Positions 9,112 to 40,013 of a stretch of DNA of 51,925 nt are shown in pieces. The position numbers and the translations under genes are program-made. Every line of letters begins with the position of its first letter. Within the stretch, counting starts at the first letter, position 1. The DNA comes from Bacteroidota bacterium (GTDB taxonomy: Bacteria; Bacteroidota; Bacteroidia; Chitinophagales; UBA8649). Location of the stretch: assembly GCA_036128775.1 (NCBI GenBank), contig JAYYPZ010000051.1, positions 1 to 51,925 of the forward strand, read 5' to 3'. The notes beneath the pieces are model-generated. The model did no database searches. It was not told the origin of the DNA and saw only the letters and a program-made list of their open reading frames with translations.

Positions 9112-9114
9112 TGT

Positions 9115-9453: not shown

Positions 9454-9576
9454 TTTTTTGTGTTTTGGTTTACTGTAATAATACAAATTACCCTATGTCT
9501 TTTCGCACCGTTAATAATGATTTTAACAGGCAACGAATTTTCTGTCTATCTTCCGATTAAAACCAAAACAATTCAA

Positions 9577-14855: not shown

Positions 14856-14899
14856 CTTAAAGTATCAATGAAATGGTAAAATACATATAGTTTCACAAG

Positions 14900-16333: not shown

Positions 16334-16335
16334 CC

Positions 16336-17250: not shown

Positions 17251-17269
17251 TCCTTCCGCTTAACCTACT

Positions 17270-23879: not shown

Positions 23880-24341
23880 ATGAACGGATGGATGCTTTTT
23901 TGGGGAATTGTTACCCTTTATATTTCCATGGAGGGAGTGGCATGGCTATCCCATCGCTACTTAATGCACGGGCTACTATGGGTATGGCACAAAGATCATC
24001 ATCAAAAGGACCCCACTTCATTTTTTGAGCTCAACGACTTATTTTTTATTGTCTATGCCGTACCGAGCGCCACATTGATTATCACCGGTCTCTCGTACAA
24101 TTTAGCCTTTGGTCTCGGAGCAGGCTTTGGAATAGCACTTTATGGAATCACCTATTTTCTAGTTCATGACGTCTTCATCCATAAACGCATACGCATTAAA
24201 CTCCCCTTTATGGGATGGTATTTCAAAGCCGTTTACAGGGCCCATCTAGCACACCACGGTACGCTAACTAAAGAGGGTGCAGAATATTTTGGACTTCTGT
24301 ACATTCCGCGGAAGTTCTTTAGACTCAACCAGCATGGATAG
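23880..24341 (+). CDS. crtZ: Beta-carotene 3-hydroxylase CrtZ
   Basis: His boxes HRYLMH, HKDHH, HDVFIHKR, HLAHH. The ATG at 23880 is preferred over the TTG at 23856. Confidence 0.92.
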   Translation: MNGWMLFWGIVTLYISMEGVAWLSHRYLMHGLLWVWHKDHHQKDPTSFFELNDLFFIVYAVPSATLIITGLSYNLAFGLGAGFGIALYGITYFLVHDVFIHKRIRIKLPFMGWYFKAVYRAHLAHHGTLTKEGAEYFGLLYIPRKFFRLNQHG

Positions 24342-25068
24342 CCACTATACTTATGCAGCGATTCTAGCAGGTAGTTTAAGTATTCCATTGATTGCTAGCT
24401 TTTTAAAACCTCTGGTTTTTTCAAAAAACTGGAGGGCATTCGGAGCATCAACCTTACTTGTAGGTGCCTTGTTTATCGCATGGGACATATTGTTTACCCA
24501 ATGGGGTGTATGGGGATTTAACGAAGCAAAGCACTTCAGCGTTAAACTAATGGGCTTACCCTTAGAGGAAATCTTGTTCTTCTTTGTAGTCCCCTTTTGT
24601 TGCCTGTTCATCTACGAAAATGTATATGTCTACATTGTAAAATCAAGAGAGAGGATTTCAACGAGTACCATGTGGTCACTCATCAGTATAGGAGTGGGTT
24701 TGTTTTTAATTGGAATAGCTCATTGGGGCAGACTGTATACCGCCTCTACCTTTCTCCTTGGCGGGGGAACACTAATTGGCATCAGTGCCACAAGGGCCCA
24801 CTGGTTACCAGCCTATATGACTGCCTATCTTTTTAGCAACATCCCATTTATTTTAGTTAATGGTATTCTGACCGGTTCCTTCGGACTCGAAGAGGTTGTA
24901 TGGTATAACGATGCAGAAAATTTAGGAAGTCGTCTTCAAGAAGTTGCAGGCCTATCCTGGACGCAAATAAATATTCCCCTTGACGACTTCGTCTATTCTT
25001 TTACCTTACTCCTGCTAAACACAGCCATCTATATGTACGTCAAGCATCGTCCTTCAAGCGCAGCTTAA
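24334..25068 (+). CDS. crtY: Fused lycopene-cyclase-domain protein (CrtYc/Yd type lycopene beta-cyclase)
   Basis: The ATG at 24334 overlaps the crtZ stop. Two copies of the lycopene cyclase domain carry the PLEE motif (GLPLEEILFFFVVPF and NIPLDDFVYSFTLLL). About 7 TM helices and no FAD-binding motif. Confidence 0.8.
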   Translation: MDSHYTYAAILAGSLSIPLIASFLKPLVFSKNWRAFGASTLLVGALFIAWDILFTQWGVWGFNEAKHFSVKLMGLPLEEILFFFVVPFCCLFIYENVYVYIVKSRERISTSTMWSLISIGVGLFLIGIAHWGRLYTASTFLLGGGTLIGISATRAHWLPAYMTAYLFSNIPFILVNGILTGSFGLEEVVWYNDAENLGSRLQEVAGLSWTQINIPLDDFVYSFTLLLLNTAIYMYVKHRPSSAA

Positions 25069-25963
25069 CATAAAGAAAGTGCATCAACACACTATGCGGA
25101 AAGGCCAATATGGAAATGGCAATTAGGGCATAGAAATACGAATGACTTTGTGCATAGAGAACAATGACCACTAGTCCTATATATGCCACAAGCGTGAAAG
25201 GAGCCAACATCCTAACAAAATGCTTTGTAGACTCCACGCGCTCATTGGACTGCAGAGCCTTGTATTCATTAATTAATGAGGGTAATGCATGAAAAATACT
25301 AAAGTATAATCCGAAACCGACCCACATGGGTAACACAACAAGGGCATAAAGAGATACAAGGCTAGTCATCGCAAAATCTAACACAAGTCTGATCTGCAGG
25401 CCATAGAACGCCAAGGCGCTCAAAATACAGGTAACAAGAAACCCTAAGGATAGTATAAAGATTCGGTGTGCTATCGATACAATGGTTGAAGAAGGAAGTT
25501 CTGTAACAAACCATGAGGGTAAGACTTCTGCAAGTTCTGTGCTGTGAAACATCGGGATGGAAGATATCACCATAAGCCCCCATGACATCGCAATGGATGT
25601 GCCTAAGGCCTTGGGTAAAACATTCCATATCAACAACGCATCGCTTTGACCAAAATGCCAAGCGCTATAGAGTAAAAACAGCCAAAACCCCACAATAGGA
25701 GCAAAGATCCATAGAAGGCCGTACACTAGCATAACAGCAAGATATTGCCCCATAAAGCGCAATTGCTGTGCCGGCTTAATCCAACCAAGTACATCACTTG
25801 CCAATATATGATCTATAGCCCCATGGGATATGCCAAACAGCCCTACCAAAACAGCCAACACTATAACAGTAAACCAAACAGGATAGGACCATCCAATAAT
25901 CAACGGCAACAGAAAACATCCTGTAATACCAAACTGAACCGTACGAAGAGTTAAGAAATTCAT
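25040..25963 (-). CDS. blh: Brp/Blh-family beta-carotene 15,15'-dioxygenase (retinal synthesis)
   Basis: Polytopic protein with spaced conserved His (GISHGAIDH, WHFGQSD, FHALPS, FPHSVLMH), directly downstream of the rhodopsin gene. Confidence 0.85.
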   Translation of the reverse strand: MNFLTLRTVQFGITGCFLLPLIIGWSYPVWFTVIVLAVLVGLFGISHGAIDHILASDVLGWIKPAQQLRFMGQYLAVMLVYGLLWIFAPIVGFWLFLLYSAWHFGQSDALLIWNVLPKALGTSIAMSWGLMVISSIPMFHSTELAEVLPSWFVTELPSSTIVSIAHRIFILSLGFLVTCILSALAFYGLQIRLVLDFAMTSLVSLYALVVLPMWVGFGLYFSIFHALPSLINEYKALQSNERVESTKHFVRMLAPFTLVAYIGLVVIVLYAQSHSYFYALIAISILAFPHSVLMHFLYVKLRLKDDA

Positions 25964-25968
25964 GGCAT

Positions 25969-25996
25969 AAAAAAAGGGTGGTCATTGTGACCACCC
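25969..25996 (-). terminator. Strong rho-independent terminator between rhodopsin and blh
   Basis: On the minus strand: GGGTGGTCA-caa-TGACCACCC (9-bp perfect stem) followed by TTTTTTT. The stem starts 28 nt after the rhodopsin stop, and the T-run ends 5 nt before the blh ATG. Confidence 0.8.
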
Positions 25997-26023
25997 TTAA
26001 GATATTAATAAGTGCGTTACTAA

Positions 26024-26782
26024 TTATGCACCTTTTCCATCTTCAACAGCTAGAGCATAGATAACAAGACCGAAACCGATTTTGTTAATTGCATCTGCGA
26101 TGTTGTATGCAACGTCCATATCAAGACCACCGAAGATACCTTCGTACCATCCTGGTGTTCCTGCCATGTAACCGATTGGGTAAATAGCCCATCCAACAAG
26201 TACAAACCATCCTAAGACTTTGTTTGCTTTTTGAACGGCACCTCCAGCATTACCTGCAAGTTCAGCAACTTCACCGAACCATACTAGGTAAACGATGTAG
26301 AAGTATGCGATACCTGAGATAAGACCCCATAACCAAGCGTCCTCACGGAAGATACCTTCCCCGATGTACCCTGTTACAAGCATTACTACAGAAGCAAAGA
26401 TGAGTTTCCACATCGTGCTGATTTGTCCACCAGCTTTCTTTGTGATCAAGTAAAACTCAACACACATTAATGGAACAGTAAGAATCCAGTCAACATAACG
26501 TAGGAACGTTGGCGAAGGATTTTCTGCACCAGCGGCAGATGCCATGATATAATAATCACGCATGTAATAATAGTGTACCGCGGCAATGAATGTAATCAAA
26601 CCCGATACAAGTAGTGAAGTACGCCACTTGGCGTCAATGTTACGCATCTCCAACCAGAAGAATGCAGTCGAGGCCATCATGGCCATAGAGCCTATAAAAA
26701 ACGTAAAAGCAATAAGTTGTTCTCCGGAGAACTCACCACCGAACGCTTGAATAGCCTCATGTGAAATAGCTAAAATGTTCAT
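26024..26782 (-). CDS. Proteorhodopsin, DTE-motif outward proton pump, Met at spectral tuning position (green-type)
   Basis: RYVDWILTVPLMCVEF gives D/T/E at the PR 97/101/108 equivalents and M at the 105 equivalent. AAVHYYYMR carries the His75 equivalent. YNIADAINKIGFG carries the Schiff-base Lys. Seven hydrophobic helices. Confidence 0.95.
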   Translation of the reverse strand: MNILAISHEAIQAFGGEFSGEQLIAFTFFIGSMAMMASTAFFWLEMRNIDAKWRTSLLVSGLITFIAAVHYYYMRDYYIMASAAGAENPSPTFLRYVDWILTVPLMCVEFYLITKKAGGQISTMWKLIFASVVMLVTGYIGEGIFREDAWLWGLISGIAYFYIVYLVWFGEVAELAGNAGGAVQKANKVLGWFVLVGWAIYPIGYMAGTPGWYEGIFGGLDMDVAYNIADAINKIGFGLVIYALAVEDGKGA

Positions 26783-27038
26783 ATAAATAATTATTTGTTT
26801 CGCCTTTAAAACACACTTGTTTAACTTTTGTTCTCACTTTTGTCAAAAAATTTTAACAAAACGCACATTTTTTTGACTTACTACGCAAAACAATGTTGAT
26901 TTCACCTAGATCAAAAGAGGCTGTTTATGAGTTTTACCGCTTGGAATACTAATCAACTTTACCAGTCTACACAGCATTTTTATGGAATAGCAGCATTAAA
27001 TGTAGCTGAACTAGTAGCTTTAGTCTTGAAGAAGTTTT

Positions 27039-28040
27039 ATGCGCACAGCAGAACCTAAAAATCAGCATGTTTTCTTTGCCTGGACTAAAATCTCTAGACG
27101 CTCTGAAGAATTAGCCCAGCGCTTTAACGCAGAATATAAGCGCTATGATCGCAAGGATAACTCAAAAGCAACCTTAGCCTTCTCCTTGTTAACCAATGCC
27201 ATAAAGACCTTCTGTTGGATTGTGGTTAATCGGCCCAAGGTAATCTTTACGTTTAATGCACATCCCTACATTACCTTGATTGCGAAAATTGCAACTTGGG
27301 TAACATGTAAAGGAACCGTAATCCCAGATTTACATACAGCAGCCTACACAGACCACTTCTATGGTATAAAAAAAATCATTGCGCAGTGGATTTGGAAAAA
27401 GTGTCCAATTGTTATCATTCATAATCAAGAATCCAAAGAATTCCTTGCAAAGAAGCAGCCTAACCTAGCCGAGAAACTATTTGTTCTTGAAGATGCTATA
27501 CCAGATTTCACAGAATATCCCAAGCAACAGTCTGGGTCCTCTCCTGTAGGCGTGTTGGTCTCCATGTTTGCAAATGACGAACCCATTGAAGCGTTCTTAC
27601 AAGCTGCTTCTCGCATTAAGGAATGTACTTTTTATGTTACGGGAAATTTTAAGAAAGCCAAATTCGACCTAACCCCATATATGGTAGAACATATAAAGTT
27701 TCCTGGCTTTGTATCGGATAATGACTACCAACGTATGCTAGGAAATGCCGATTTCATAGCGGTACTTACAACGCGCGAAATGACCCTTTTATCTGGAGGT
27801 TATGAAGCCCTTGCCCTCGAGAAACCGTTAATCCTCTCAAAAACAAAAACACTAATGGATTATTACGGCGATTCAGCACTCTATGCAGAAAACAAGGCAG
27901 AGAGTATTGAATCTTCAATTCGACGGATTCTTGAGAATCTTGCCTTGTATCAAGAAAAGGTTGATGTCCATAAAAAGATCAAAGTCAAAGATTTCAATAC
28001 CAAGGCATCAACACTCCTCGACATCCTAAAGACCTTGTAG
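27039..28040 (+). CDS. Putative glycosyltransferase (GT-B/GT4-like)
   Basis: The C-terminal half has a GT-B-like pattern (FPGFVSDNDYQRML..ADFIAVL...LLSGGYEALALEKPLILS). No closer assignment is possible. Confidence 0.6.
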   Translation: MRTAEPKNQHVFFAWTKISRRSEELAQRFNAEYKRYDRKDNSKATLAFSLLTNAIKTFCWIVVNRPKVIFTFNAHPYITLIAKIATWVTCKGTVIPDLHTAAYTDHFYGIKKIIAQWIWKKCPIVIIHNQESKEFLAKKQPNLAEKLFVLEDAIPDFTEYPKQQSGSSPVGVLVSMFANDEPIEAFLQAASRIKECTFYVTGNFKKAKFDLTPYMVEHIKFPGFVSDNDYQRMLGNADFIAVLTTREMTLLSGGYEALALEKPLILSKTKTLMDYYGDSALYAENKAESIESSIRRILENLALYQEKVDVHKKIKVKDFNTKASTLLDILKTL

Positions 28041-28056
28041 CGACCTTATTATTGCC

Positions 28057-28899
28057 CTATAAAGAAGAGGTAAAATCATCTAATGTTACGGATGATAGCT
28101 CAGTGAGAATGTATTCTTTTTGCTCCGCTGAAAAAATGGTATCAAACTTATTCGTTGCCTTTATCTCATCACTGCTATCAGGTTTCCACTGCTCCTCTTC
28201 AAACTTTAACGCTTTAGTCTTTTTCGAAAAAGACAGCATATCCTCTGAAAACCTTACATCGATAAAATTGCATAATCCAGAGATCGCATGGCTTGCGTTA
28301 TTCAGAAGGTCATTGTAGGTGATATAAAAATGATTGGGTTGTTTTATGTATTGCTTATGGATTTTGATATCTCGTTTCCAGCGTTTGATACAATCCTGTA
28401 CACTCTGCTTTCCTCCAAAGGAATCGGGATATTGCTGACTTGCTTCATATAAAGACGCTACAACATCCTTTCCTTCCCTAACGACATGGATAAACTTGGT
28501 ATTCGGATCCGCATGTTGAATCAAGGGAATAAAATAAAGGTGCATGGGAGTCTTTTCAATCCAAGCTGTTGTCTGGTTGTCTTCAGGGATACGATCGATA
28601 AGGTCAAGCATTTCAGCTACCCAGCGCGTTGTGTTTGCCGTTTGCCTAGGAATTGCTTCATACAATTCCTCTCGTTGAATTTTTTTCAAAAAGTGCCTAA
28701 TAAACTCTTGATCTTTTTTGCCGTAAAATTTAAACCACTGTAATACCCTGTACTTAGGAATCGTACCACGAAAAAAATGCGTTTCCGGAAACGAGGCAAT
28801 CGCCTTGTTTGAGGCCAAGATAGATTGCAACAGCGTTGTACCCGAGCGTGCGCACCCCACGATAAAAATTCTATGTCGATCAGATGGCAAAGTCTTCAT
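28057..28899 (-). CDS. Sulfotransferase-family protein (PAPS-dependent)
   Basis: 5'-PSB loop IFIVGCARSGTTLL and 3'-PB-like VVREGKDVVASL. Confidence 0.8.
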   Translation of the reverse strand: MKTLPSDRHRIFIVGCARSGTTLLQSILASNKAIASFPETHFFRGTIPKYRVLQWFKFYGKKDQEFIRHFLKKIQREELYEAIPRQTANTTRWVAEMLDLIDRIPEDNQTTAWIEKTPMHLYFIPLIQHADPNTKFIHVVREGKDVVASLYEASQQYPDSFGGKQSVQDCIKRWKRDIKIHKQYIKQPNHFYITYNDLLNNASHAISGLCNFIDVRFSEDMLSFSKKTKALKFEEEQWKPDSSDEIKATNKFDTIFSAEQKEYILTELSSVTLDDFTSSL

Positions 28900-29866
28900 A
28901 ATGTTTTACTGGTAGAATGGAGTATCCCTGTTGAATCTTACGAATCTGCTCATTATTGAGCACCCTCTTCCATTTATTGTTAAGGTCCTCGAGTACTCGA
29001 AACGTCTTTAGGCCTTTACCCGGCTTATTCATCGTTTGAATAGTATTAGCTATCGTTTTATTCCAAGGAAGGTCTAATGCATTAAAAAGATTTTCAAAAC
29101 GTGCGACAGGGTCGACACATAGATCTTCATGTGTCCTTATTATACAAGAAGGGCGCTTGACAATTTCTTGTTCCCACAGATAATAGAATAATCCAATTTG
29201 AAAGCCCATTTTAGATAGCGGGTCCTCTAAACGTTGAATATCATCCGAGTAGTCTTCCAATACCGACTGTAGCTCTAATCTATTGATCAAACCACGATCA
29301 GCATCTTTTATATCCAGTTCTAAAGAGCTAGCGATAATATTAGCAGGATGGCGAAAAAGAAGGACAATCCAAGGGTCAAAATGATCTGCAATTAGCGAGA
29401 GGCATAATCCAGCGTGCACGGATTTAACAACTTGCCGCGAATAAGAAGCCCAGTTATCAGATGTGAGTCTAAACAGGAAGCTTGTCAAATTCTTCTTTGA
29501 GGAAAATCGGCCTTGTTCTTGCGCTAAACTAAGCTCTTTACGAAGTATATGTCCTTCATTATTACTCGCCGTATGACGGAAAAATCGATTGAGCGCATGA
29601 TTAACCACAGACTGATTAGCCGGGTACTTTCCATTAAATATGGATTGGTAGAATTCTATTACCTGACGATTTTGCTCTTGACTGGATGAAGCATACGGAA
29701 ATCGATGAAGAGACTGCTTCCATTGGCGACCGATAAAGCTATATTTTTCGTTATCTGGCTCCTTAAGCAGTCTTACACCATGTGCTGATCCAAGGATATT
29801 AGCAACCCAAGTCGTTCCGCTTCTTGAAAGCCCAGCTATAAAAATATTCTTGTTGCTAGTCGTCAT
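28880..29866 (-). CDS. Sulfotransferase-family protein (PAPS-dependent)
   Basis: 5'-PSB loop IFIAGLSRSGTTWV and LLFRHPANIIASS. It overlaps the downstream sulfotransferase gene by 20 nt. Confidence 0.75.
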   Translation of the reverse strand: MTTSNKNIFIAGLSRSGTTWVANILGSAHGVRLLKEPDNEKYSFIGRQWKQSLHRFPYASSSQEQNRQVIEFYQSIFNGKYPANQSVVNHALNRFFRHTASNNEGHILRKELSLAQEQGRFSSKKNLTSFLFRLTSDNWASYSRQVVKSVHAGLCLSLIADHFDPWIVLLFRHPANIIASSLELDIKDADRGLINRLELQSVLEDYSDDIQRLEDPLSKMGFQIGLFYYLWEQEIVKRPSCIIRTHEDLCVDPVARFENLFNALDLPWNKTIANTIQTMNKPGKGLKTFRVLEDLNNKWKRVLNNEQIRKIQQGYSILPVKHYEDFAI

Positions 29867-29962
29867 GGTTGGTTATCAATCGAACTCCTTCGATAGTTCT
29901 AAGGTAAGGCATTGATGCAACACGCATTTATCTCTTCAAGTACTTTTTGCAAACGTTGCGAT

Positions 29963-31417
29963 CTACAAGCTATCGATAGCAATCTTGGCCGACAACAAAC
30001 ATAGAGGCACTCCACCCCCTGGATGTCCACCCCCTCCTACAAAGCGAAGATTTTTTATTAATGGATTTCGTTCGCTGTGTCGAAAAAACGCACTAAATGG
30101 GGAATTTGAGGCATTGCCATACAGGGCCCCAGCATACGACGAAGTATCCCGCTCAATGCCTTTTGGCGTCCAAACCTGCTCAAACTGAATTGCCTTAGCC
30201 AACGAAATACCGAGCACAGAATCAATCTTGGCTAAAATGTTATCCTTAGCTCGTGCTGCCATTTCATCCCAATCCTGCCCGGAGTCATGCGGAACATTGA
30301 TCATAACAAACCAATTTTCAGCTTGACTCGGCGCATCACCTGCAATGTGCTTTTTACTTATATAGATGTAGACCGTAGGATCATCACTCACATTACCCAA
30401 TTGTATGGCCTGGAATTCTTCCTTATAGTTTGCGCTAAACAAGATGTTATGTACATCAAGGTTGGCGTGTTCCCCCTGAACACCCCAATAAAATATTAAG
30501 GCAGAGGTTGACTTCTCTTGGTTAATCACTTTTTTTGGAGACTTTAGCGAAGGAAGGAGCTTATTATAGGTAGGTTGTACATCCATATTCGTGATCACTC
30601 GATCAAACGAATGATGATGTTCTCCTGACCGAATACCGACGGCTCGCCTTCCCTCGAGCAAAATTTCATCAATTGGACTGTTTATATGAAATATCACGCC
30701 TAATTCCTTACCCAACTGAATTAGCGATTGAACCACATGGTGCATTCCTTTGTCCATAATAAAGGCCCCATGATTATGCTCAAGATGACTTATTACTGCC
30801 ATGGTTCCTGGCGCACGATATGGGTCAGAGCCATTGTAGGTAGCATATCGGTTAAACAACTGAATCGCCTCAGGAGTAGTAAAAAACTTTTTATGCAGAG
30901 CATTAAATGTTGTGAATGCCTTTAAGCGTCTTAGAGAAGCCGCTCTAGGAAAAACGTGCTTTGGTATGTAGCGCCAAGCCTTTCGCAGTGGATGACGAAG
31001 AAAAACCTCTTCGGTCAGTTCAAAAACTTTCTGAGCATGATGCAAATACTCTAATACATGATCGCTTCGTTCTCCGAAGACCCGTTCAAACTCTTGGGCA
31101 AAATCTTCGGCATTCGCATACGCATGAAACACTTTGCCATCAGGATAAAAATATTTTGTAATAACAGGCAGTCTTGAGTAGCTGTAATAATCTGAGGGAT
31201 TCTTACCACATGTTGTGAATAGCTCATCGAGCACTTCGGGCATCGTAAACAGCGAAGGACCTCTGTCAAATCGAAAACCAGCCTCACGAATTTCACCTGC
31301 CTTTCCCCCCAACATGGAATTTGCCTCAAACACGGAGACATTATATCCCTTATTGGCAGCTAGTGCGGCAGAAGCTAGTCCAGCCACCCCAGAACCAATG
31401 ACAGCAATTGAACTCAT
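29963..31417 (-). CDS. crtD: Phytoene-desaturase-family FAD oxidoreductase, CrtD-like (carotenoid 3,4-desaturase)
   Basis: N-terminal dinucleotide fold IAVIGSGVAGLASAALAANKGYNVSVFEAN..LGGK. FNRYATYNGSDPYRAPGTMAVISHLE resembles flavobacterial CrtD rather than CrtI, as far as I recall. C-terminal GGGGHPGGGVP. The subfamily call is less certain than the family call. Confidence 0.75.
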   Translation of the reverse strand: MSSIAVIGSGVAGLASAALAANKGYNVSVFEANSMLGGKAGEIREAGFRFDRGPSLFTMPEVLDELFTTCGKNPSDYYSYSRLPVITKYFYPDGKVFHAYANAEDFAQEFERVFGERSDHVLEYLHHAQKVFELTEEVFLRHPLRKAWRYIPKHVFPRAASLRRLKAFTTFNALHKKFFTTPEAIQLFNRYATYNGSDPYRAPGTMAVISHLEHNHGAFIMDKGMHHVVQSLIQLGKELGVIFHINSPIDEILLEGRRAVGIRSGEHHHSFDRVITNMDVQPTYNKLLPSLKSPKKVINQEKSTSALIFYWGVQGEHANLDVHNILFSANYKEEFQAIQLGNVSDDPTVYIYISKKHIAGDAPSQAENWFVMINVPHDSGQDWDEMAARAKDNILAKIDSVLGISLAKAIQFEQVWTPKGIERDTSSYAGALYGNASNSPFSAFFRHSERNPLIKNLRFVGGGGHPGGGVPLCLLSAKIAIDSL

Positions 31418-31427
31418 AAAAGAGGGA

Positions 31428-32648
31428 TTAGCTTAGTTTATGGCCTCCTAAATCACGCTTAGCTTGCAAGTACTTCTCATTATGCGGATTTGGAGCAATC
31501 TCAATAGGAACAGCCTCAACGACTTCTAACCCATAACCTATCAGACCAACCCGTTTAGTAGGATTGTTCGACATCAGACGCATTTTTCGAATGCCGAGCT
31601 CTCTTAGAATTTGCGCTCCCACTCCATAATCGCGCTGATCCATATCAAAGCCCAAGGCCTGATTGGCTTCATAGGTATTCATACCTTCCTCTTGCAGCGC
31701 ATAGGCTTGAAGTTTACTTCGAAGCCCAATACCCCTTCCCTCTTGTTGCATATATAAGAGAACGCCTTGTCCTTCATGTTGAATATGTTGGAGGGCCGAA
31801 CTCAACTGATCACCACAGTCACAGCGCAGGGATTGAAGAAGGTCACCTGTTAAACAAGAGGAGTGAACTCGAGTAAGCACGGCATCTTCCTCACTCCATT
31901 CGCCCATGGTCAACGCAAAATGAAATTCTCCAGTATTCTCTTGAGTAAAGCCATGCAATTGGAAATCTCCATACTTTGTTGGAAGCTTAACTTGAAGGTC
32001 TTTAGATACCAACGACTCGTGCCTCAATCGATACTTAATGAGGTCTTCAATGGAGATAATCCGCAAGTCAAACTTTTCTGCAACCTTCCAGAGGTCTGGC
32101 ATTCGTGCCATCGAGCCATCATCATTGAGTATTTCTACAAGGACGCCCGCAGGCTCAAAACCTGATAATCGAGCTAAATCCACCGCTGCTTCTGTGTGAC
32201 CCGCTCTGCGAAGCACCCCACCATTTTTTGCCTTGAGCGGAAAAATGTGTCCAGGCTTACCTAAATCCTCTGGGCGCGTTGCAGGGTCAATAAGCGCTTG
32301 AATTGTCTTTGCACGATCTTGCGCACTGATTCCTGTCGTCACACCATCTTTTAAGAGGTCAACGGAAACGGTAAACTGGGTTTCATGGAGCACCGTGTTT
32401 TTGCCGACCATTAAGTCAAGTTGTAACGCCTCTGCACGGGCTTCAGTGATCGGAGCGCAAATCAGTCCTCTTCCTTCCTTAGCCATAAAGTTTACCACCT
32501 CAGGATTGGCATTGGCAGCAGCTGTAATGAAATCCCCTTCATTTTCCCGATCCTCATCATCAACAACGATGACTAGTTTGCCTGCCTTAATCGCCTCGAT
32601 GGCGGACTCCACCGTGTCCAACTTTCTTTCTTCAATAGCTTTACTCAT
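31428..32648 (-). CDS. ribBA: Bifunctional 3,4-dihydroxy-2-butanone-4-phosphate synthase / GTP cyclohydrolase II
   Basis: DDEDRENEGDF and GHTEAAVDLA (RibB half); VHSSCLTGD..SLRCDCG and EGRGIGL (RibA half). The ATG at 32648 is preferred, and it overlaps the upstream GT2 stop. Confidence 0.95.
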   Translation of the reverse strand: MSKAIEERKLDTVESAIEAIKAGKLVIVVDDEDRENEGDFITAAANANPEVVNFMAKEGRGLICAPITEARAEALQLDLMVGKNTVLHETQFTVSVDLLKDGVTTGISAQDRAKTIQALIDPATRPEDLGKPGHIFPLKAKNGGVLRRAGHTEAAVDLARLSGFEPAGVLVEILNDDGSMARMPDLWKVAEKFDLRIISIEDLIKYRLRHESLVSKDLQVKLPTKYGDFQLHGFTQENTGEFHFALTMGEWSEEDAVLTRVHSSCLTGDLLQSLRCDCGDQLSSALQHIQHEGQGVLLYMQQEGRGIGLRSKLQAYALQEEGMNTYEANQALGFDMDQRDYGVGAQILRELGIRKMRLMSNNPTKRVGLIGYGLEVVEAVPIEIAPNPHNEKYLQAKRDLGGHKLS

Positions 32649-33822
32649 TGCGCATTCTTTCTGTTGGCTTCCATATTCCATGGCGCCGGCCCAATACAAA
32701 ATCAAACGTTCCACAAAGTACGGCCATATTCATAATTATGAAGTAGCTAAATCCCTGAAGAAGTTTAGGACTTCGATGAAACAATCTTTCTCCTAAATTA
32801 TGAGCCACCATACAAAGGGCGATTAACCCAATACACGTTAAACTCCAAAAATATCCATAGGGTTGTAAAAAAGTGTCAAGAAAACAACCCGAGACAATAA
32901 GCGCTATTCCCAAGATGGGTGTTAACCACCTCAGAATCTTATGCGACCACAATAACCATAGTGTTTGAAAAGATGCTCGACCAGGCAACTTGGGCAATTT
33001 CAAAAGATTTTGCCAATTCCCGCAAGTTATTCTTCGCTTTCTTCGAAACTCAACGGCTAACTTCCCTGATACAGATTCGTGGGCTACAATTTCATGACTG
33101 ACTATGGATGGTTTTCCCGTCTTTAACTGAGCGTAGGCGATAAAAAAGTCATCTACCGTCAATTTTGGAGGGATCACAGGAAGGTTCTTGCAAGGCAAGA
33201 TGTAACATGCACCAAAAACACCCATTGCGCGATGAAATACATCTCCTTCCGCAAGCTTTAATCGGGTCTCCAAAGAGAGATACATCGACTCGCTATCAAA
33301 ATAAATCTCTTTTGAATTTGACTGGCTTCGACTTCGTCCTGCGATGATAGCCTCAGGATTTTGTTGTACAAGTCGATGCAGTACGGCCCATCCTTCGGAT
33401 TGTATAACAACATCAGCATCCAAACACAGCAGATACCCCTTACGAGCTCTCAACATGTCCTGATACTTATGCCATTGCCCGGGTTTGCCGAGTCGTTCGT
33501 CACTTTGAATAAGCGTAAATCGTTTGTCAAGGGTCTGAAAGCGTTCAATAACAGCATGACTTCCATCTGTTGAGGCATCTGAGATAATGATAAACTCAGC
33601 ATTCCACATATCTCCAGGACAGGTGATTAACGCACTAAGACTATTTTCTAAAACACCTTCTTCGTTATGTATGAACATTACAATCGTCAATGGCAAGGTG
33701 CCTTCGTTATGAGGAAGAGCTGCTCGATTGTGAGGAACCCTGCGAAAAGCAAAAAGCATAACGCCTGGAAATATAATCCACGTATAGACCAAAAGAAAAA
33801 GTAAGACACCTGCTATAATCAT
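32641..33822 (-). CDS. Membrane-embedded family-2 glycosyltransferase
   Basis: N-terminal TM helix and a GT-A core (IVMFIHNEE, IIISDASTDGS, LCLDADVV). An RRKRRITCGNWQ region is followed by about four C-terminal TM helices. Size and topology are comparable to carotenoid GT2s (CrtQ/CruC type) but also to many other lipid- or polymer-acting GT2s. Confidence 0.8.
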   Translation of the reverse strand: MIIAGVLLFLLVYTWIIFPGVMLFAFRRVPHNRAALPHNEGTLPLTIVMFIHNEEGVLENSLSALITCPGDMWNAEFIIISDASTDGSHAVIERFQTLDKRFTLIQSDERLGKPGQWHKYQDMLRARKGYLLCLDADVVIQSEGWAVLHRLVQQNPEAIIAGRSRSQSNSKEIYFDSESMYLSLETRLKLAEGDVFHRAMGVFGACYILPCKNLPVIPPKLTVDDFFIAYAQLKTGKPSIVSHEIVAHESVSGKLAVEFRRKRRITCGNWQNLLKLPKLPGRASFQTLWLLWSHKILRWLTPILGIALIVSGCFLDTFLQPYGYFWSLTCIGLIALCMVAHNLGERLFHRSPKLLQGFSYFIIMNMAVLCGTFDFVLGRRHGIWKPTERMRNE

Positions 33823-35012
33823 TAATACTTCTTGTCTATGCCGATTGAATACTTATCATAAAGCGCCTTGCCTATACTCGATGGGTTATGATGCTGATCA
33901 ACATAATGCATGCCACGCTGCCTCAAGCCATCCCACAAACCCTCTTCACTTGAAATCTTGCAAATCGACTCAACAAATTGTTCAACGTCTTCTGCAATGA
34001 GCACCTCTTGGTTGTCGGCGACGGCAAGACCTTGAAATGCCTTTGAAGTGCCAATACAGGGAATACCTGCGGCGAGTGCCTCTAACACCTTGACGCGAAC
34101 TCCTCCTCCTGATTTAAAGGGCATAATCATGACATCCATGGACCGCACAAAGTGCAAGGCCGATTTGACCTCGCCAAGTATATGGATTTGATTTGATCGC
34201 CTCTTGACTAGCCAACTCGGCATATTGCGGCCTGCAAGATGTAAGGTCCAGTTATCCAATATATTTAGCCGCGGTACTATTTCATCTAAGAGCCATTCAG
34301 CCGCCTCGGCGTTAGGTGACCAATCCCAGGAAGCAATCAATCCAAGACGGAGGCCTCCACCCGTTATTCGGTTAGGCTGAGCAATATGATCTGCTACCAT
34401 TCCTATAGGTATAACCTCTGTTCTCACCTCAGGGCAGTTCATCCGAACCAATTCGTTGTCTTCATGAGATATAGGTAAAACAAGATCTGCGCTAGACCAC
34501 GCCAAGCGTTCAAATCGCCTGATATCATTCGCCATTTTCTGATATAATGCATAATGCAGTCCTCGAACACCGGCGAGGCGATTTTGCCAAATCTCTTCCT
34601 CGATATTATGAAGACGTAGAATGATTGGAGCATGGCTAATTTTTCTTAGGCCTTCTATATAGGTAGCAAGAAAAACGCTTTCAATTTGGATAATATCAGG
34701 TTCGTAATGGCTTACCACCTCATGTAAACTCGATGCAGCATCTGCATTATAAAAACGTCTTACCTGCAAGGGATACTTTCTCTGATAGGAAAAAAAATGG
34801 GAAGCGACTGCCGTATTGATTGTCATTGTGTAGGCCTGATTTTCCTCATCATAGCGAAGCCCCTTCAAGGATTTGCCTGAGGAATCCAATGAAAACCAAA
34901 CCACATCTGCCCCGGCACGTTTCAAGCTTTTACCCAGTGTGTAAACAGCCATTGACTCTCCGTCCATAGGCGGATGAACTTGTTTCTTTGAGAGGATTAA
35001 AACTTTCATCAA
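33822..35012 (-). CDS. Glycosyltransferase, GT4 (GT-B) family
   Basis: GGGVRVKVLEALAAGIPCIGTS E-x7-E region. The stop overlaps the GT2 start (TAATG). Confidence 0.85.
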   Translation of the reverse strand: MMKVLILSKKQVHPPMDGESMAVYTLGKSLKRAGADVVWFSLDSSGKSLKGLRYDEENQAYTMTINTAVASHFFSYQRKYPLQVRRFYNADAASSLHEVVSHYEPDIIQIESVFLATYIEGLRKISHAPIILRLHNIEEEIWQNRLAGVRGLHYALYQKMANDIRRFERLAWSSADLVLPISHEDNELVRMNCPEVRTEVIPIGMVADHIAQPNRITGGGLRLGLIASWDWSPNAEAAEWLLDEIVPRLNILDNWTLHLAGRNMPSWLVKRRSNQIHILGEVKSALHFVRSMDVMIMPFKSGGGVRVKVLEALAAGIPCIGTSKAFQGLAVADNQEVLIAEDVEQFVESICKISSEEGLWDGLRQRGMHYVDQHHNPSSIGKALYDKYSIGIDKKY

Positions 35013-35077
35013 CGTCTGCTAAGATATTGAGTTCTTTAGCACTAACGATTACTTAGAATCCTTGGTATCTTTGGTTT

Positions 35078-35827
35078 ATGTCATCGTCTCCTAAAACAGT
35101 GCCTCAAATCACCATTATCATGCCTGCCTATAATGCAGAAGAGACCCTGGCAAAAACTTTATCCGAAATTCCTTCAGGTATAGCCCAGCATGTCATTCTT
35201 ACAGATGACGCTAGTACTGACAATACAGTACGTGCAGCAGAAGAATTGAATATTGACATCATCATTCAACACGAATTCAATAAGGGATATGGTGCGAACC
35301 AAAAATCTTGTTATCGAAAGGCACTTGATATAGGGTCTGACATCATCATTATGTTACATCCAGACTATCAGTACTCTCCTAAACTAATCCCTGCCATGGT
35401 TGCGATGATTACCTCCGGGCACTATGACGTGATCTTGGCTTCTAGAATTCTCAGTGGCGGTGCACTAAAAGGGGGCATGCCTCTTTATAAGTATGTGGCT
35501 AATCGCTTACTTACGTTTACACAAAACATATTTATGGGCTTAAAACTTTCGGAATATCACACAGGCTATCGTGCATTTCGATCAGATGTTCTCCAATCCA
35601 TTGATTTCGAATCCAATTCAGATGATTTCATATTCGACAATCAACTTCTTGCTCAAATTGCCTCCAAGAAGTTTGCTATCGGAGAAGTAACCTGCCCCAC
35701 AAAATATTTCAAGGAAGCCTCTTCGATAAACCTCAGACGAAGTGTGATATACGGCCTAGGGTGTTTACGGATTACTTGGCTCTATTTTCTATGGAGGATA
35801 AGGTGGCACAAAACGCTAAAAGTTTAG
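35078..35827 (+). CDS. Family-2 glycosyltransferase (dolichyl/polyprenyl-phosphate sugar synthase-like)
   Basis: ITIIMPAYNAEETL, LTDDASTDNT, NKGYGANQK, HPDYQY, YHTGYRAF. It is soluble, with a GT-A fold. Confidence 0.85.
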   Translation: MSSSPKTVPQITIIMPAYNAEETLAKTLSEIPSGIAQHVILTDDASTDNTVRAAEELNIDIIIQHEFNKGYGANQKSCYRKALDIGSDIIIMLHPDYQYSPKLIPAMVAMITSGHYDVILASRILSGGALKGGMPLYKYVANRLLTFTQNIFMGLKLSEYHTGYRAFRSDVLQSIDFESNSDDFIFDNQLLAQIASKKFAIGEVTCPTKYFKEASSINLRRSVIYGLGCLRITWLYFLWRIRWHKTLKV

Positions 35828-35918
35828 CCGCATTGCTTTTAACGTTTTTTTATATGCCTCGTATGTGTTCTTTAGCAAATCTGCGTTAGAAGTACATGAT
35901 TCGCCTTATTTTTGAATT

Positions 35919-36350
35919 ATGGTCTTTCTGAGAACCTTACTTATCTTTTTGGCAGTAAGTATTGCTACTTTGCTCCATGCACAGGTGGATAATAAAGAGA
36001 TTAAATCCTGCCTGGTTCTCAGTTTTAATGAAATCTCCCTAGTCGGAAGCGATCAAGAAGCGGTCTATCAAGACATAGCGTCCCTATGCGAAACCGGCGA
36101 GTGTAGCATAGAAGAAATAGCAAGTTTTCTCCCTAATCTTCCAAGCTCTAACCGGAATTTATCGACCTTTCTCAAAAGAAAGAATTATTCTTTCGAGACC
36201 GATTTACCCACCGATTCTCTTGCTACCTTAGTCCTCTTATCCATTGAAGACAATCTTCTGGTAAAAAGCTTTATGGAACGTTCAGAGGACCGGCCAACTC
36301 GACTTCATACGGCCTTAGTTAAGTGGCTCAACCTATTTAAAGAATCATAA
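35919..36350 (+). CDS. Secreted hypothetical protein (paralog of N-domain of next gene)
   Basis: Signal peptide ending LLHAQ. It shares a C-x(n)-C-x4-C pattern and the (V/G)(K/L)(S/K)F(M/L)(E/D)R...(V/Q)(K/G)WL(N/E)(L/I)F end motif with 36361-37770. Confidence 0.55.
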   Translation: MVFLRTLLIFLAVSIATLLHAQVDNKEIKSCLVLSFNEISLVGSDQEAVYQDIASLCETGECSIEEIASFLPNLPSSNRNLSTFLKRKNYSFETDLPTDSLATLVLLSIEDNLLVKSFMERSEDRPTRLHTALVKWLNLFKES

Positions 36351-36360
36351 AATTCGTTTA

Positions 36361-37770
36361 ATGAAAATCAGAAAATATATCCTGTGGACTATACTAACTA
36401 GTCTAATACTCTCTGCAGCGCCCACCGCCACGCTGTACAGCCAAATTACAAGGGATGATGTGACTACTTGCATTATGTTAAGTTGCAACCAGGTATCCCT
36501 AAGACAGGCACAACGAGATGCTGTCTTCAACTCGTTTAGTGAACCTTGTCTAATGGGGGATTGCAAACAGGATGATTTAATGGCCAATATCAATGGTCTT
36601 CCTCCGCTTAATCAATCACTTACTTTACAAATCATTGATTTGACCACTGAGGCAAATCTTGATTTAGATGCTCAGCAACTCGCCGAAGCCTTAATTACGG
36701 AATTATACGTTGAAGGGAAGCTCAAGGGATTTCTTGATCGAAATCCTAATCGCAAAGAAATGGTTGCCGCAGAACTCCAAGGATGGCTGGAAATTTTTAT
36801 TAATGCGAGAAAAACAGAAGCAACTGACCCTGACGAAAATTATGACTTTCCTGATCAAACACAAGAAAATCAATCCTCTGACGAGATTCCTGCCAATACA
36901 CAAAACAATCAAGATAATCAGAGCAGCCAGAATGACAACGAGGATGTTCGAGGAGAGGATGATGGAGATGTAGTAGAGGAAGAAAAAAGCGGTAGTAATC
37001 TCGTTTTCATTATCATCATTCTCCTTTTACTAGGTGTGATTGGTCTGCTTGCCTTTTTGTATTACAAGCTGAATCTCGAAAAAGAGGATCTCGAACAGTC
37101 GACCAAACGCCTCCGGGACGAAAGCGCGCAGTTTAATGCAGAGCAATATAAACTCAAACGTTTACTAAGCGAAAGAGAACGAGAGCTTAGATCCCTTATG
37201 GAGAGCCAACAAAGAACTCAAATTCCAAAAGCTGTAAATGAGGAAGTAGTGGAAAAGAAAAATCCAGATCAAAGCAACGATATCCCCGCTCAAGAGGTCA
37301 CTGGCGAGATTCCTTTTAATCAAGTAGAGGATACCCAGGTGTTTAATGAAGAAGAAAATCAAGAAACCAAAATTGAAGAGGCAGCTAAGCGCCCTGAAGA
37401 TGATAATCCAGGGCACGTGAGCTATCCACCGAATATAGAGGGACAGCGTTCCGTTGTATTCTTCAGTGCACCTAATGCCCAAGGTGAGTTCCCCTCCTCA
37501 GCCATGATGAGAGATTACAGCCCTGAGGCAGTAATCAGAGTGTTCCTGCGCGATGAAGAAGCGGATTACGGTGAATTCCAAATTGTCACTAATCCTACAT
37601 CCCAGCGTAATTTATTGGCGAATTGGGAGCATACGCTTGCCCATTTTGCCGTTCCTGTAAATCCTGAACATCCCGAACCAAGAAGTATAGAACTTGAGCG
37701 TGCTGGAGGAATTCGGGAAAGCCAAGGAGTTTGGAAAGTTGTACGAAAAGCGAAAGTGCGCTTTATGTAA
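36361..37770 (+). CDS. Hypothetical single-pass membrane protein: secreted N-domain, acidic linker, TM helix, coiled coil, C-terminal globular domain
   Basis: Signal peptide and a paralogous N-domain. Then a DNQ/E-rich linker, TM helix LVFIIIILLLLGVIGLLAFLYY, a coiled coil (LEKEDLEQSTKRLRDESAQFNAEQYKLKRLLSERERELRSL) and a ~110-aa C-terminal domain. Confidence 0.6.
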   Translation: MKIRKYILWTILTSLILSAAPTATLYSQITRDDVTTCIMLSCNQVSLRQAQRDAVFNSFSEPCLMGDCKQDDLMANINGLPPLNQSLTLQIIDLTTEANLDLDAQQLAEALITELYVEGKLKGFLDRNPNRKEMVAAELQGWLEIFINARKTEATDPDENYDFPDQTQENQSSDEIPANTQNNQDNQSSQNDNEDVRGEDDGDVVEEEKSGSNLVFIIIILLLLGVIGLLAFLYYKLNLEKEDLEQSTKRLRDESAQFNAEQYKLKRLLSERERELRSLMESQQRTQIPKAVNEEVVEKKNPDQSNDIPAQEVTGEIPFNQVEDTQVFNEEENQETKIEEAAKRPEDDNPGHVSYPPNIEGQRSVVFFSAPNAQGEFPSSAMMRDYSPEAVIRVFLRDEEADYGEFQIVTNPTSQRNLLANWEHTLAHFAVPVNPEHPEPRSIELERAGGIRESQGVWKVVRKAKVRFM

Positions 37771-37846
37771 GGCAATATACTTTGCGAAGATTACCATACT
37801 TTTGACCTGCTCAACGTAGGAGGTTGAGGTAGACTAAATAAAAGAC

Positions 37847-39239: not shown

Positions 39240-40013
39240 ATGGCAGTAAAACTAAGACTTCAGAGACACGGGCGTAAAGGACGTCCTTACTATTATATCG
39301 TAGCCGCTAACGCATCGTCAAAAAGAGACGGACGCTATATCGAGCGTGTAGGAAGCTACAATCCAGTAAACAGTCCAGCAACTATCGATTTAGATGTAGA
39401 TGCTTCGCTAAAGTGGCTTGAGAATGGAGCAGAACCAACGCCAACGGTGCGCAGAATTCTATCCTACAAAGGTGTCCTCTACAAAAAGCATCTCATGCGT
39501 GGAGTACGGAAAGGCGCTTTAACGCTAGAAGAAGCTGAAGCAAAATTTGCAGAATGGACAGCGAACAAAGAAGCTGAGATTCAAAAGGCAATCGAAGTGA
39601 ATGCTCAAAAAATTCAAGAAAGCAAGAAAGCTAAGGCGAAAAAAGAACTTGAAAAGAGCGCTTCAATTTTGGCAGCAAGAAGAGCTAAACTAGAAGAGGC
39701 AGCCGCTCCTGCAGAGGAGGAAGTAACTGCTGACGACGAAGGCGCTCCTTCAGAGGAAGCAGCTGTTGTCGAAGCTCCCGCTGAAGAGGCTCCTGCTGAA
39801 GAAGCAGCCGCTGAGGAAGCTCCTGCCGAAGAAGCAGCCGCTGAAGAAGCTCCTGCTGAAGAAGCAGCCGCTGAAGAAGCTCCTGCTGAAGAGGCTCCCG
39901 CTGAAGAAGCTCCCGCTGAAGAAGCTCCTGCTGAAGAAGCTCCCGCTGAAGAAGCAGCCGCTGAAGAAGCTCCTGCTGAAGAAGACAACAAAGAAGACGA
40001 AGCTGCAGAATAA
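39240..40013 (+). CDS. rpsP: 30S ribosomal protein S16 with long acidic repeat-containing C-terminal extension
   Basis: MAVKLRLQRHGRKGRPYYYIVAANASSKRDGRYIERVGSYNP is the S16 core (~85 aa). It is followed by a K/A/E-rich tail and 14 units of AEEA(P/A). Confidence 0.93.
   Translation: MAVKLRLQRHGRKGRPYYYIVAANASSKRDGRYIERVGSYNPVNSPATIDLDVDASLKWLENGAEPTPTVRRILSYKGVLYKKHLMRGVRKGALTLEEAEAKFAEWTANKEAEIQKAIEVNAQKIQESKKAKAKKELEKSASILAARRAKLEEAAAPAEEEVTADDEGAPSEEAAVVEAPAEEAPAEEAAAEEAPAEEAAAEEAPAEEAAAEEAPAEEAPAEEAPAEEAPAEEAPAEEAAAEEAPAEEDNKEDEAAE
39771..39984 (+). repeat. 15-nt tandem repeat (about 14 units) inside rpsP encoding AEEAP/AEEAA
   Basis: gctgaagaagctcc(t/c) and gctgaagaagcagcc units read directly, nearly identical at the DNA level. 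Confidence 0.9.

Follow-up and report, generated by a model that had tools for sequence, protein, structure and literature searches.

The window analysed here is a stretch of 51,925 nucleotides (nt) from a Bacteroidota bacterium (assembly GCA_036128775.1, contig JAYYPZ010000051.1), and our subject is a string of six minus-strand genes lying between positions 28,057 and 35,012. In the direction of transcription, the string encodes two glycosyltransferases (GTs), GT4 and GT2, the riboflavin enzyme RibBA, the carotenoid desaturase CrtD and two sulfotransferases (STs), ST2 and ST1, of the type dependent on 3'-phosphoadenosine 5'-phosphosulfate (PAPS). The gene of a proteorhodopsin (PR) begins 1275 nt beyond the string's end (Table 1). 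An earlier note on this DNA had proposed that the six genes form a pathway for the glycosylation and sulfation of a carotenoid, possibly one relevant to the rhodopsin. All six co-directional open reading frames (ORFs) that it described are present, as judged from the ORF list and the translations, and its domain calls for the six genes are borne out by Pfam and NCBIfam scans. It left out a plus-strand glycosyltransferase gene, GT1x, which occupies the stretch separating the string from the rhodopsin gene. The nearest genomes to that of the window are uncultured marine metagenome-assembled genomes (MAGs) assigned to 'Saprospirales', 'Chitinophagales' or 'Bacteroidetes'; contigs and loci used in the comparisons are designated by labels of the form L001.

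Table 1. Positions of the six genes, the accessory cassette and the neighbouring features in the window.
Feature	Position	Strand	Evidence and remarks
CrtZ-like beta-carotene 3-hydroxylase, 153 aa	23880-24341	plus	four His boxes: HRYLMH, HKDHH, HDVFIH, HLAHH
Lycopene cyclase, fused two-domain CrtYcd type	24277-25068	plus	PF18916 (two stretches); TIGR03462
Blh, beta-carotene 15,15'-dioxygenase (retinal synthesis)	25040-25963	minus	PF15461, 132.5 bits
Strong terminator-like hairpin	25974-25998	minus	11-bp stem, 6 GC pairs, T-run; just after the PR stop codon
Proteorhodopsin (PR), proton-pumping	26024-26782	minus	PF01036; 70% identical to NM-R1
Accessory cassette, 3.06 kb (ST2, ST1, convergent GT1x, own flanks)	26902-29962		between crtD and the PR promoter region
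GT1x, GT-B glycosyltransferase	27039-28040	plus	PF00534, 28.4 bits; convergent with ST1
ST1, PAPS-type sulfotransferase, 280 aa	28057-28899	minus	PF13469, 98.3 bits; PF00685, 53.7 bits
ST2, PAPS-type sulfotransferase, 328 aa	28880-29866	minus	PF13469, 44.8 bits
Leader upstream of ST2, 96 nt	29867-29962	minus	within the cassette indel; possible site of a cassette promoter
CrtD, 1-hydroxycarotenoid 3,4-desaturase	29963-31417	minus	NF042421 equivalog
RibBA, bifunctional 3,4-dihydroxy-2-butanone 4-phosphate (DHBP) synthase / GTP cyclohydrolase II	31428-32648	minus	PF00926 and PF00925; NF006803
GT2, membrane glycosyltransferase with GT-A domain	32641-33822	minus	PF00535
GT4, GT-B glycosyltransferase	33822-35012	minus	TTG start; PF13692/PF13439; first gene of the GT4-GT2-RibBA block
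GT2b glycosyltransferase	35078-35827		

The junctions between the genes are tight and were read in the sequence as the earlier note had given them. GT4 and GT2 overlap by a single nucleotide in the TAATG at 33826-33822, and GT2 and RibBA by 8 nt in ATGAGTAA at 32648-32641. A 10-nt gap at 31418-31427 separates RibBA from CrtD (TAA-tccctctttt-ATG), 96 nt lie between CrtD and ST2, and ST2 and ST1 share 20 nt at 28880-28899. The start of RibBA is ambiguous, being either the ATG at 32648 (MSKAIEE...) or the GTG at 32714, which gives the longest ORF (31428-32714). Tight co-directional packing of this kind is ordinary in bacterial genomes and is no evidence that the genes serve a common pathway.

RibBA scores 589.3 bits on NF006803, above the cutoff of 569, and carries both of its expected domains, which places it in the RibBA family. 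The two sulfotransferases belong to the PAPS-dependent class: their PF13469 scores exceed the cutoff of 27 bits, both contain an (A/S)RSGTT motif and an R-x(6)-S motif, and ST2 is modelled with the corresponding fold. The library scan provided no NCBIfam equivalog for GT4, GT2, GT1x, ST1 or ST2. GT4 gave a weak match to TIGR03087 (stp1) with 89.6 bits against a cutoff of 316. As read from the translation, the hydrophobic helices of GT2 comprise one at the N-terminus and about three at the C-terminus.

The distribution of the first three genes was explored by scanning one genome per species with an alignment of the GT2 family. This yielded 80 loci, onto which all of the window's proteins were mapped by tblastn; 75 of the species genomes lie outside the clade of the window and are referred to here as outgroup genomes. 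Sequence identity to GT2 is 74-92% within one marine clade only and 27-34% outside it. In the outgroup, the GT2 homologue is directly preceded by a GT4 homologue in 31 of the 64 genomes that could be evaluated and directly followed by RibBA in 31 of 70, and LptF/G is encoded within 1.8 kb upstream in 18 of 64. CrtD, a sulfotransferase and PR were each found within 10 kb of the GT2 homologue in 0 of the 75. The carriers of the block span Saprospiraceae/Lewinella, Chitinophagaceae, Cytophagaceae (Cytophagales), Schleiferiaceae, a 'Chlorobiota' MAG, Bacteroidales and Rikenellaceae, and the overlap between the GT2 and RibBA genes is often kept, as in L004 and L005, where GT2 is 34% and 29% identical, respectively. 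In Verrucomicrobiales, including Akkermansia MAGs, GT2 occurs without its block partners. GT4-GT2-RibBA is an ancient syntenic gene block of Bacteroidota.

The gene order in Rikenella microfusus is LptFG-GT4-GT2-RibBA-Fmt. To our knowledge, neither the gut Bacteroidales (Rikenella microfusus, Rikenellaceae) nor Akkermansia are known to make carotenoids. The earlier note had named the same arrangement of GT/ST genes in carotenoid-free relatives as an observation that would count against a carotenoid pathway, and GT4-GT2(-RibBA) does recur in lineages not known to make carotenoids, Rikenella microfusus being one example.

The best solved relative of GT2 is the structure 6YV7, which a profile of 24 GT2 homologues matches over residues 12-262 with E=3.6e-37; the match of this profile to ceramide glucosyltransferase is weak (3e-7). 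The 6YV7 coordinates describe PcManGT, a membrane GT2 mannosyltransferase from Pyrobaculum calidifontis that consists of a GT-A domain and a small bundle of transmembrane helices (PMC10569066). The window GT2 similarly combines a GT-A domain with a few transmembrane helices. PcManGT is, however, an archaeal enzyme, and the bacterial GT2 family differs from it by an additional helix at the N-terminus and by a conserved region, SHKILRW / EFRRKRRI.

Comparisons were also made with the characterised carotenoid glycosyltransferases, to two of which, CrtQ and CruC, the earlier note had likened GT2. CruC was represented by the protein encoded in the Thermus thermophilus pTT27 carotenoid cluster (L096:11496-12518); TT_P0062 of Thermus has been assigned as CruC (PMC4021367). 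A BLASTP comparison of GT2 with this protein returned E=1.6 and no specific similarity, and an hhalign comparison of the profiles aligned only 109 columns of the generic, nucleotide-binding N-terminal GT-A region at 20% identity. A tblastn search with GT2 across all plasmids gave no Thermus match. On the CruG model NF045692, GT2 scores 20 bits, where the cutoff is 600, and the match is confined to the N-terminal 148 residues. The CrtX sequence was taken from the crt plasmid of Pantoea agglomerans (L177:12014-13303), and GT4 (E=1.4), GT1x (E=0.14) and GT2 (E=1.6) all lack similarity to it. No model named for CrtQ appeared in a permissive NCBIfam scan. What GT2 has in common with CruC and CruG is the fold of the GT-A GT2 superfamily and a similar size, and what GT4 and GT1x have in common with CrtX is the GT-B fold, with no specific similarity. 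On these comparisons, the glycosyltransferases of the window fall outside the CruC, CruG and CrtX families. GT2, whose nearest solved relative is a mannosyltransferase and which shows nothing specific in common with CruC, CruG or CrtX, appears to be an envelope-type glycosyltransferase rather than a carotenoid glycosyltransferase.

We judge the chances to be about even that GT4 and GT2 make an envelope glycoconjugate, because of the association with LptF/G and the membrane-glycosyltransferase architecture. The cytoplasmic GT-B enzyme and the membrane GT-A enzyme, which has a minimal cellulose-synthase-like architecture, would then probably build or extend a lipid-linked lipopolysaccharide, lipooligosaccharide or glycolipid. 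RibBA makes riboflavin precursors and is probably expressed from the GT4-GT2 transcript. The GT4-GT2 pair, often accompanied by LptF/G and RibBA, is widespread and uncharacterised in Bacteroidota and merits functional assignment.

CrtD belongs elsewhere. It is a genuine carotenoid desaturase adjoining the rhodopsin module, as the earlier note held: it scores 527.9 bits on the equivalog NF042421, whose cutoff is 500, and it keeps all 47 invariant columns of the CrtD alignment, in which it is itself included, among them the GxGxxG and HPGGG motifs. It is a divergent member, 46% identical to the best library representative and 41-49% identical to the CrtDs found outside the clade. CrtD lies directly after RibBA only in the marine Saprospirales/Chitinophagales clade of the window (L001-L010, L088-90). 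For comparison, 80 outgroup CrtD loci were taken from metagenomes using library representatives, and neighbours within 8 kb were recorded. The neighbours are a CruF-like PF04240 protein in 54 of the 80, a CrtZ-like protein (41-48% identical) in 21 and a lycopene cyclase in 13, so that these loci are ordinary crtD-cruF-crtZ-cyclase clusters; PR, Blh, RibBA, GT2, GT4 and sulfotransferases were found in none of the 80. CruF or CrtC is the partner 1',2'-hydratase that forms the substrate of CrtD, and a CruF-like gene is found neither in the window nor, over 10 kb, at the loci of the clade.

A further candidate carotenoid gene emerged at 23880-24341. This ORF, which has no Pfam or NCBIfam match, overlaps the start of the lycopene cyclase gene and is 90-96% conserved in the clade. 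By tblastn it is 41% identical over 92-93% of its length (E ~1e-17) to the gene in the crtZ position of Pantoea, the reference plasmids for this position having the order crtE-idi-crtX-crtY-crtI-crtB. Because of this match, we take the ORF to encode a CrtZ-like hydroxylase that the profile libraries miss. The order of the local island is thus CrtZ-like, lycopene cyclase, Blh, PR, [cassette], CrtD, and crtD and crtZ-like genes adjoining blh and PR are an arrangement seen in 0 of the 80 outgroup CrtD loci.

The rhodopsin itself was compared with NM-R1 of Nonlabens marinus, for which cryo-EM structures with myxol (9JOV) and zeaxanthin (9JOU) define the residues in contact with the carotenoid ring (bioRxiv 10.1101/2024.11.08.622755). 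The DTE motif (D98/T102/E109) and the tuning residue M106 are conserved in the window PR, which by these motif residues is a green-tuned proton pump. In TM5/TM6, residues W150, G153, L154, Y205, M206, W212 and Y213 are identical to W139, G142, L143, Y194, M195, W201 and Y202 of NM-R1. Because the reported ring contacts, all of which are kept, and the glycine of the WLWGL sequence match those of NM-R1, the window PR is predicted to bind a 3-hydroxy carotenoid. G142 of NM-R1 would be the equivalent of Gly-156, the fenestration glycine, of xanthorhodopsin (XR). The two proteins thus share the DTE motif, the Met tuning residue, the ring contacts and the WLWGL glycine; in the window, crtD and a crtZ-like gene adjoin the PR and blh genes, an arrangement that the NM-R1 paper does not describe.

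The island also recalls the xanthorhodopsin system of Salinibacter. CruC and CruD take part in making salinixanthin, a 4-keto acyl-glycoside, and in Salinibacter the crtO and blh genes are neighbours of the XR gene. For the xanthorhodopsin of Salinibacter ruber, crtO is required to make the antenna carotenoid (PMC3587595). The likeness would be that of a rhodopsin whose antenna carotenoid calls for a dedicated tailoring enzyme, and the position of crtO and blh beside XR would find its analogue in that of CrtD, CrtZ and Blh beside PR in the window. The two systems differ in that the window contains no crtO, cruC or cruD homologues and its glycosyltransferases are unrelated to CruC.

Synthesis of myxol and saproxanthin needs 3',4'-desaturation of the CrtD type and 3-hydroxylation of the CrtZ type. 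Since both of these steps are represented and the carotenoid site of the PR is kept, we assign CrtD to the rhodopsin island rather than to the glycosyltransferases. The products of the island would be retinal and a monocyclic 3-hydroxy, 3',4'-didehydro xanthophyll resembling saproxanthin or myxol. We offer only as a tentative suggestion, with the odds against it, that CrtZ-like, cyclase, Blh, PR and CrtD constitute a self-contained opsin, retinal and antenna-carotenoid island supplying the PR. If so, the island would be a Bacteroidota counterpart of the XR/crtO arrangement of Salinibacter, and the sulfotransferases would be irrelevant to it. The adjacency of crtD and PR is the more interesting lead from this locus, giving a genomic handle on the antenna carotenoid in uncultured marine Bacteroidota.

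The sulfotransferase genes form part of a discrete insertion. In blastn alignments, homology of the window to cassette-free relatives ends at 29963-29970, at the stop codon of CrtD, and resumes at 26901, which sets the boundaries of the cassette at 26901/26902 and 29962/29963. In L001, only ~18 nt lie between these boundary points. Besides the window, L010 and L088-90 carry the cassette. L001, L003, L007, L008 and L009 lack it, and in these the PR gene follows CrtD directly after ~130 nt; counted by species, three of the four related genomes that could be evaluated are without it. Its GC content is 0.399, as compared with 0.439 for CrtD, 0.466 for RibBA and 0.42 for the window, and that of the adjoining site at 26783-26901 is 0.25. 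We did not find a strong compositional sign of foreign origin, the difference between 0.40 and 0.42 being modest, and a repeat search together with alignment of the boundaries revealed no target-site duplication and no terminal or flanking repeats at either end of the cassette.

Both sulfotransferases have intact PAPS-binding motifs (ST2, SRSGTT in the 5'-phosphosulfate-binding (5'-PSB) and RHPANIIAS in the 3'-phosphate-binding (3'-PB) element; ST1, ARSGTT and REGKDVVAS) and no signal peptide, as expected of cytoplasmic enzymes. The AlphaFold model of ST2 has a pLDDT of 91.2, and Foldseek aligns it with TPST, the mycobacterial sulfotransferases Stf9 and Stf1, and the CurM sulfotransferase with a probability of 1.00 and TM scores of ~0.45-0.5. 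Searches of Protein Data Bank (PDB) sequences gave no matches for ST2 or GT1x, and weak ones for ST1, to the CurM sulfotransferase (6.7e-8) and TPST. These structural neighbours confirm the fold and not the acceptor.

More telling is the company that the cassette genes keep elsewhere. Homologues of ST1 and ST2 occur together on the same foreign contigs, across phyla. In the Marinimicrobia contigs L086, L087 and L091-93, the whole ST-ST-GT trio is found in the same order and orientation, with 35-48% identity for all three proteins, and GT1x is 41-43% identical to the glycosyltransferase whose gene converges there on the ST pair. On one side, this trio is flanked by genes for Polysacc_synt (Wzx), YfhO, ATP sulfurylase and APS kinase, and on the other by two GT2 genes. 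The closest outside relative, the metagenome contig L094 (61% and 58% identity), has the order ST2-ST1-GT-GT2-GT2. These outside loci possess the elements of a Wzx/Wzy locus, namely flippase, polymerase, glycosyltransferases and PAPS supply, and no crt gene lies within 10 kb of the trio in them. In the Balneolaceae, an ST1 homologue adjoins the gene for the capsule protein Wzi. Order and orientation of the trio, at 35-61% identity, are what the Marinimicrobia and L094 loci share with the window; they differ in adding Wzx, YfhO, two soluble GT2s, ATP sulfurylase and APS kinase, where the window has only the trio. A tblastn search of the Marinimicrobia and L094 loci with the window GT2 gave no match, the GT2s of these loci being soluble and different.

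Because the homologous trio resides in Wzx/PAPS polysaccharide loci, we favour a role for the cassette in the sulfation of a surface glycan, and this homologue context makes it likely that the cassette yields a strain-variable sulfated surface polysaccharide or glycolipid. In the cytoplasm, GT1x would extend a lipid-linked glycan intermediate by a sugar, and both sulfotransferases would then sulfate the product. The earlier note had itself allowed for an unrelated sulfated glycolipid or polysaccharide pathway, and the homologue loci of the trio speak for that alternative. It had also named polysaccharide or glycolipid enzymes as the closest homologues that a carotenoid pathway should not have; the closest informative relatives that we find are of this sort, 6YV7 for GT2 and the Wzx/PAPS loci for the ST-ST-GT trio. 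The trio would be a portable 'sulfated sugar' module common to Marinimicrobia and Saprospirales-like bacteria, and flexible-genome cassettes for the sulfation of surface glycans belong to a class that differs from strain to strain in marine bacteria.

Two further observations concern the cassette and its surroundings. About 10 kb from it, at 13743-18715, lies a group consisting of a GT4 gene (13743-14855, minus), an unassigned 477-aa ORF, a Wzz/GNVR-like gene and a Wzy_C/O-antigen-ligase-like gene; this glycan group could supply a scaffold that the cassette modifies. In the cassette-bearing TARA contig L088, ST2 (9015-9788) is called with a length of only 227 aa and its tblastn match stops short, which may reflect a frameshift or pseudogene or else an assembly error.

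The relationships within the clade add to this picture. Per-gene identities over positions 26000-37800 were tabulated for the window against L006, L007 and L010. The left half of this region (hyp143, GT2b, GT4 and GT2) is 89-99% identical to L006/L007, and the right half (CrtD, ST2, ST1, GT1x and PR) is 93-98% identical to L010. The left half of L010 is only 68-78% identical to the window and does not contain GT2b. Two alleles of PR (~98% versus ~74%) segregate independently of the presence of the cassette. As the halves have different nearest relatives, the alignments place a recombination breakpoint around RibBA/CrtD, inside the proposed operon, with the two halves recombining independently; a breakpoint within the string argues against a co-adapted unit of six genes.

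Taken together, we consider it highly probable that the string brings together three modules of separate history and, most likely, separate function: GT4-GT2-RibBA, CrtD with the PR island, and the ST2-ST1-GT cassette. We arrive at this division from synteny, from presence and absence of genes, from the indel boundaries, from family memberships and from the want of similarity to CruC, CruG and CrtX, and we infer the acceptor substrates and the structure of the transcripts. The components are all of known kinds, an uncharacterised conserved envelope-GT block, a flexible-island glycan cassette and a PR/retinal/carotenoid island. The evidence points to ordinary biology, that of a housekeeping envelope-GT and riboflavin block beside a flexible cassette for surface-glycan sulfation.

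Several points weigh against this division. The cassette is placed between a carotenoid gene and the gene for a rhodopsin predicted to bind a carotenoid, and this in two PR-allele backgrounds, which is perhaps not a coincidence. The acceptors of GT4, GT2, GT1x, ST1 and ST2 are established for no member of their families, and the structure search did not discriminate between them. The 52-kb window holds no Wzx gene and no PAPS-synthesis gene that would complete a sulfated-glycan pathway. No convincing terminator-like site lies in any gap of the six-gene string, and, with the genes co-directional and the junctions very short, read-through co-transcription is possible, including from crtD into the sulfotransferase genes. 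Finally, that Rikenellaceae and Akkermansia lack carotenoids is a matter of general knowledge.

The 96-nt leader upstream of ST2 bears on the question of transcription. Its mean identity across the window, L010, L089 and L090 is 87%, and it contains an invariant block of 24 nt, CCTTACCTTAGAACTATCGAAGGA, at 29885-29908 (minus), while the ST proteins of the carriers are only ~85% identical. This block may be a regulatory or translation-initiation element. The suggestion of the earlier note that the gap could uncouple the sulfotransferases from the genes upstream fits with its belonging to the inserted cassette. The only resemblance to a promoter of the Bacteroidetes type in the leader is a partial match, TTTG-N19-TAAATGCG; the exact Bacteroidetes -7 box, TAnnTTTG, does not occur in the 96-nt gap. 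Exact boxes are found inside the GT2 gene at 32846-32853, 130-200 nt upstream of ribBA, and at the 3' end of crtD at 29996-30003. In the window as a whole, TAnnTTTG is depleted, occurring 20 times where 49 occurrences would be expected, and several of the matches stand just upstream of gene starts, those of GT2b (35066), hyp143 (35907), ffh (37797), the DtxR-like gene (22614) and exbB (10848). A scan for sigma-70 promoters was uninformative, returning 15 sites against 21 expected for a promoter type that is the wrong one for Bacteroidota. An Rfam scan of the window identified one tRNA only and no FMN riboswitch before ribBA.

Among the competing explanations, the one that survives best is that the cassette and GT4-GT2 act jointly in the synthesis of a single sulfated glycolipid or oligosaccharide, RibBA and CrtD being carried along in one long operon. 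The genes are on the same strand, separated by short gaps and no clear terminator, and the cassette needs a glycan scaffold, the nearest glycosyltransferases being GT4, GT2 and GT2b. We nevertheless regard it as unlikely, since GT4-GT2 is unchanged in cassette-free relatives and in orders that never carry the cassette, the trio in the Marinimicrobia and L094 loci is paired with other, soluble GT2s, with no tblastn match there to the window's, and the half with the cassette and the half with the glycosyltransferases do not share their nearest relatives.

A connection of the cassette alone with carotenoids has to be seen against what is known of carotenoid sulfation. Erythrobacter contains the sulfates of caloxanthin, nostoxanthin and zeaxanthin, and sulfotransferase activity has been inferred in its cell extracts, with no gene identified (PMC6627997). 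The statement in the earlier note that no carotenoid sulfotransferase gene is known agrees with the literature searched, in which we found none and only this activity in extracts. On such a reading, the hydroxy-carotenoid formed by CrtZ, CrtD and the cyclase would be glycosylated by GT1x, and ST1 and ST2 would sulfate the carotenoid or its sugar. The cassette sits precisely between crtD and PR on two PR-allele backgrounds, one that of the window and L010 and the other that of L088-90, it has a glycosyltransferase of its own, its sulfotransferases are of the cytoplasmic small-molecule type by fold (TPST, CurM sulfotransferase, SULTs), and carotenoid sulfates and the extract activity are on record for marine bacteria. 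Marine origin, hydroxy-carotenoid acceptors and sulfotransferase activity make up the likeness to Erythrobacter; the difference is that ST1 and ST2 are linked to carotenoids by position alone. Moreover, homologues of the trio sit in plain polysaccharide loci with no crt gene within 10 kb, another ST1 homologue stands beside Wzi, GT1x lacks similarity to CrtX, and the position of the cassette is equally well explained by a permissive AT-rich intergenic site at 26783-26901. We therefore think this connection very improbable. Were it true, the cassette would provide a strain-specific amphiphilic pigment modulating the PR antenna, and its enzymes would be the first identified carotenoid sulfotransferases.

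Least credible of all is the proposal with which the earlier note began, that the string as a whole forms a single pathway, with GT4 and GT2 glycosylating, and ST1 and ST2 sulfating, a CrtD-derived monocyclic carotenoid, possibly as a rhodopsin antenna: the co-directional genes with their tight junctions, the genuine CrtD, the retained carotenoid site of the PR and the open niche for a carotenoid sulfotransferase in the searched literature are outweighed by a GT4-GT2-RibBA block that stands without crt genes in 75 of 75 outgroup genomes, gut anaerobes included, by the absence of GT2, GT4 or ST beside CrtD in all 80 outgroup CrtD loci, by a GT2 no closer to CruC, CruG and CrtX than the generic fold, by the absence of the sulfotransferases from three of four evaluable related species genomes that keep GT4-GT2-RibBA-CrtD-PR, and by the differing recombination histories of the two halves. 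With the block kept apart from CrtD and the sulfotransferases tied to glycan loci, carotenoid glycosylation and sulfation by the string is left unsupported. Such a tailoring pathway would have mattered, both for the carotenoid sulfotransferase gene that it would have supplied and because glycosylated carotenoids can serve as rhodopsin antennae.

Some further features concern other ORFs of the window. Hyp143 (35919-36350, plus) is a secreted protein of 143 aa that is paralogous to the N-terminal domain of hyp469 (36361-37770, plus), a protein of 469 aa that continues with an acidic low-complexity linker, one transmembrane helix and a coiled coil before its C-terminal domain. Across the clade the two proteins are conserved but fast-evolving, with 68-99% identity, and have no family match. 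The possibility that GT2b, hyp143 and hyp469 (35078-37770) make up a GtrB/GtrA/GtrC-like system was considered and rejected, since hyp143 and hyp469 are either secreted or span the membrane once, unlike a polytopic flippase or a GT-C enzyme. A neighbouring ORF carries a type IX secretion system (T9SS) sorting tail and an SprB repeat, which mark the DNA as that of a Bacteroidota. The gene for ribosomal protein S16 at 39240-40013 (plus) encodes 257 aa, with a long C-terminal extension that gives a weak extensin-like repeat match, as compared with 192 aa in related contigs.

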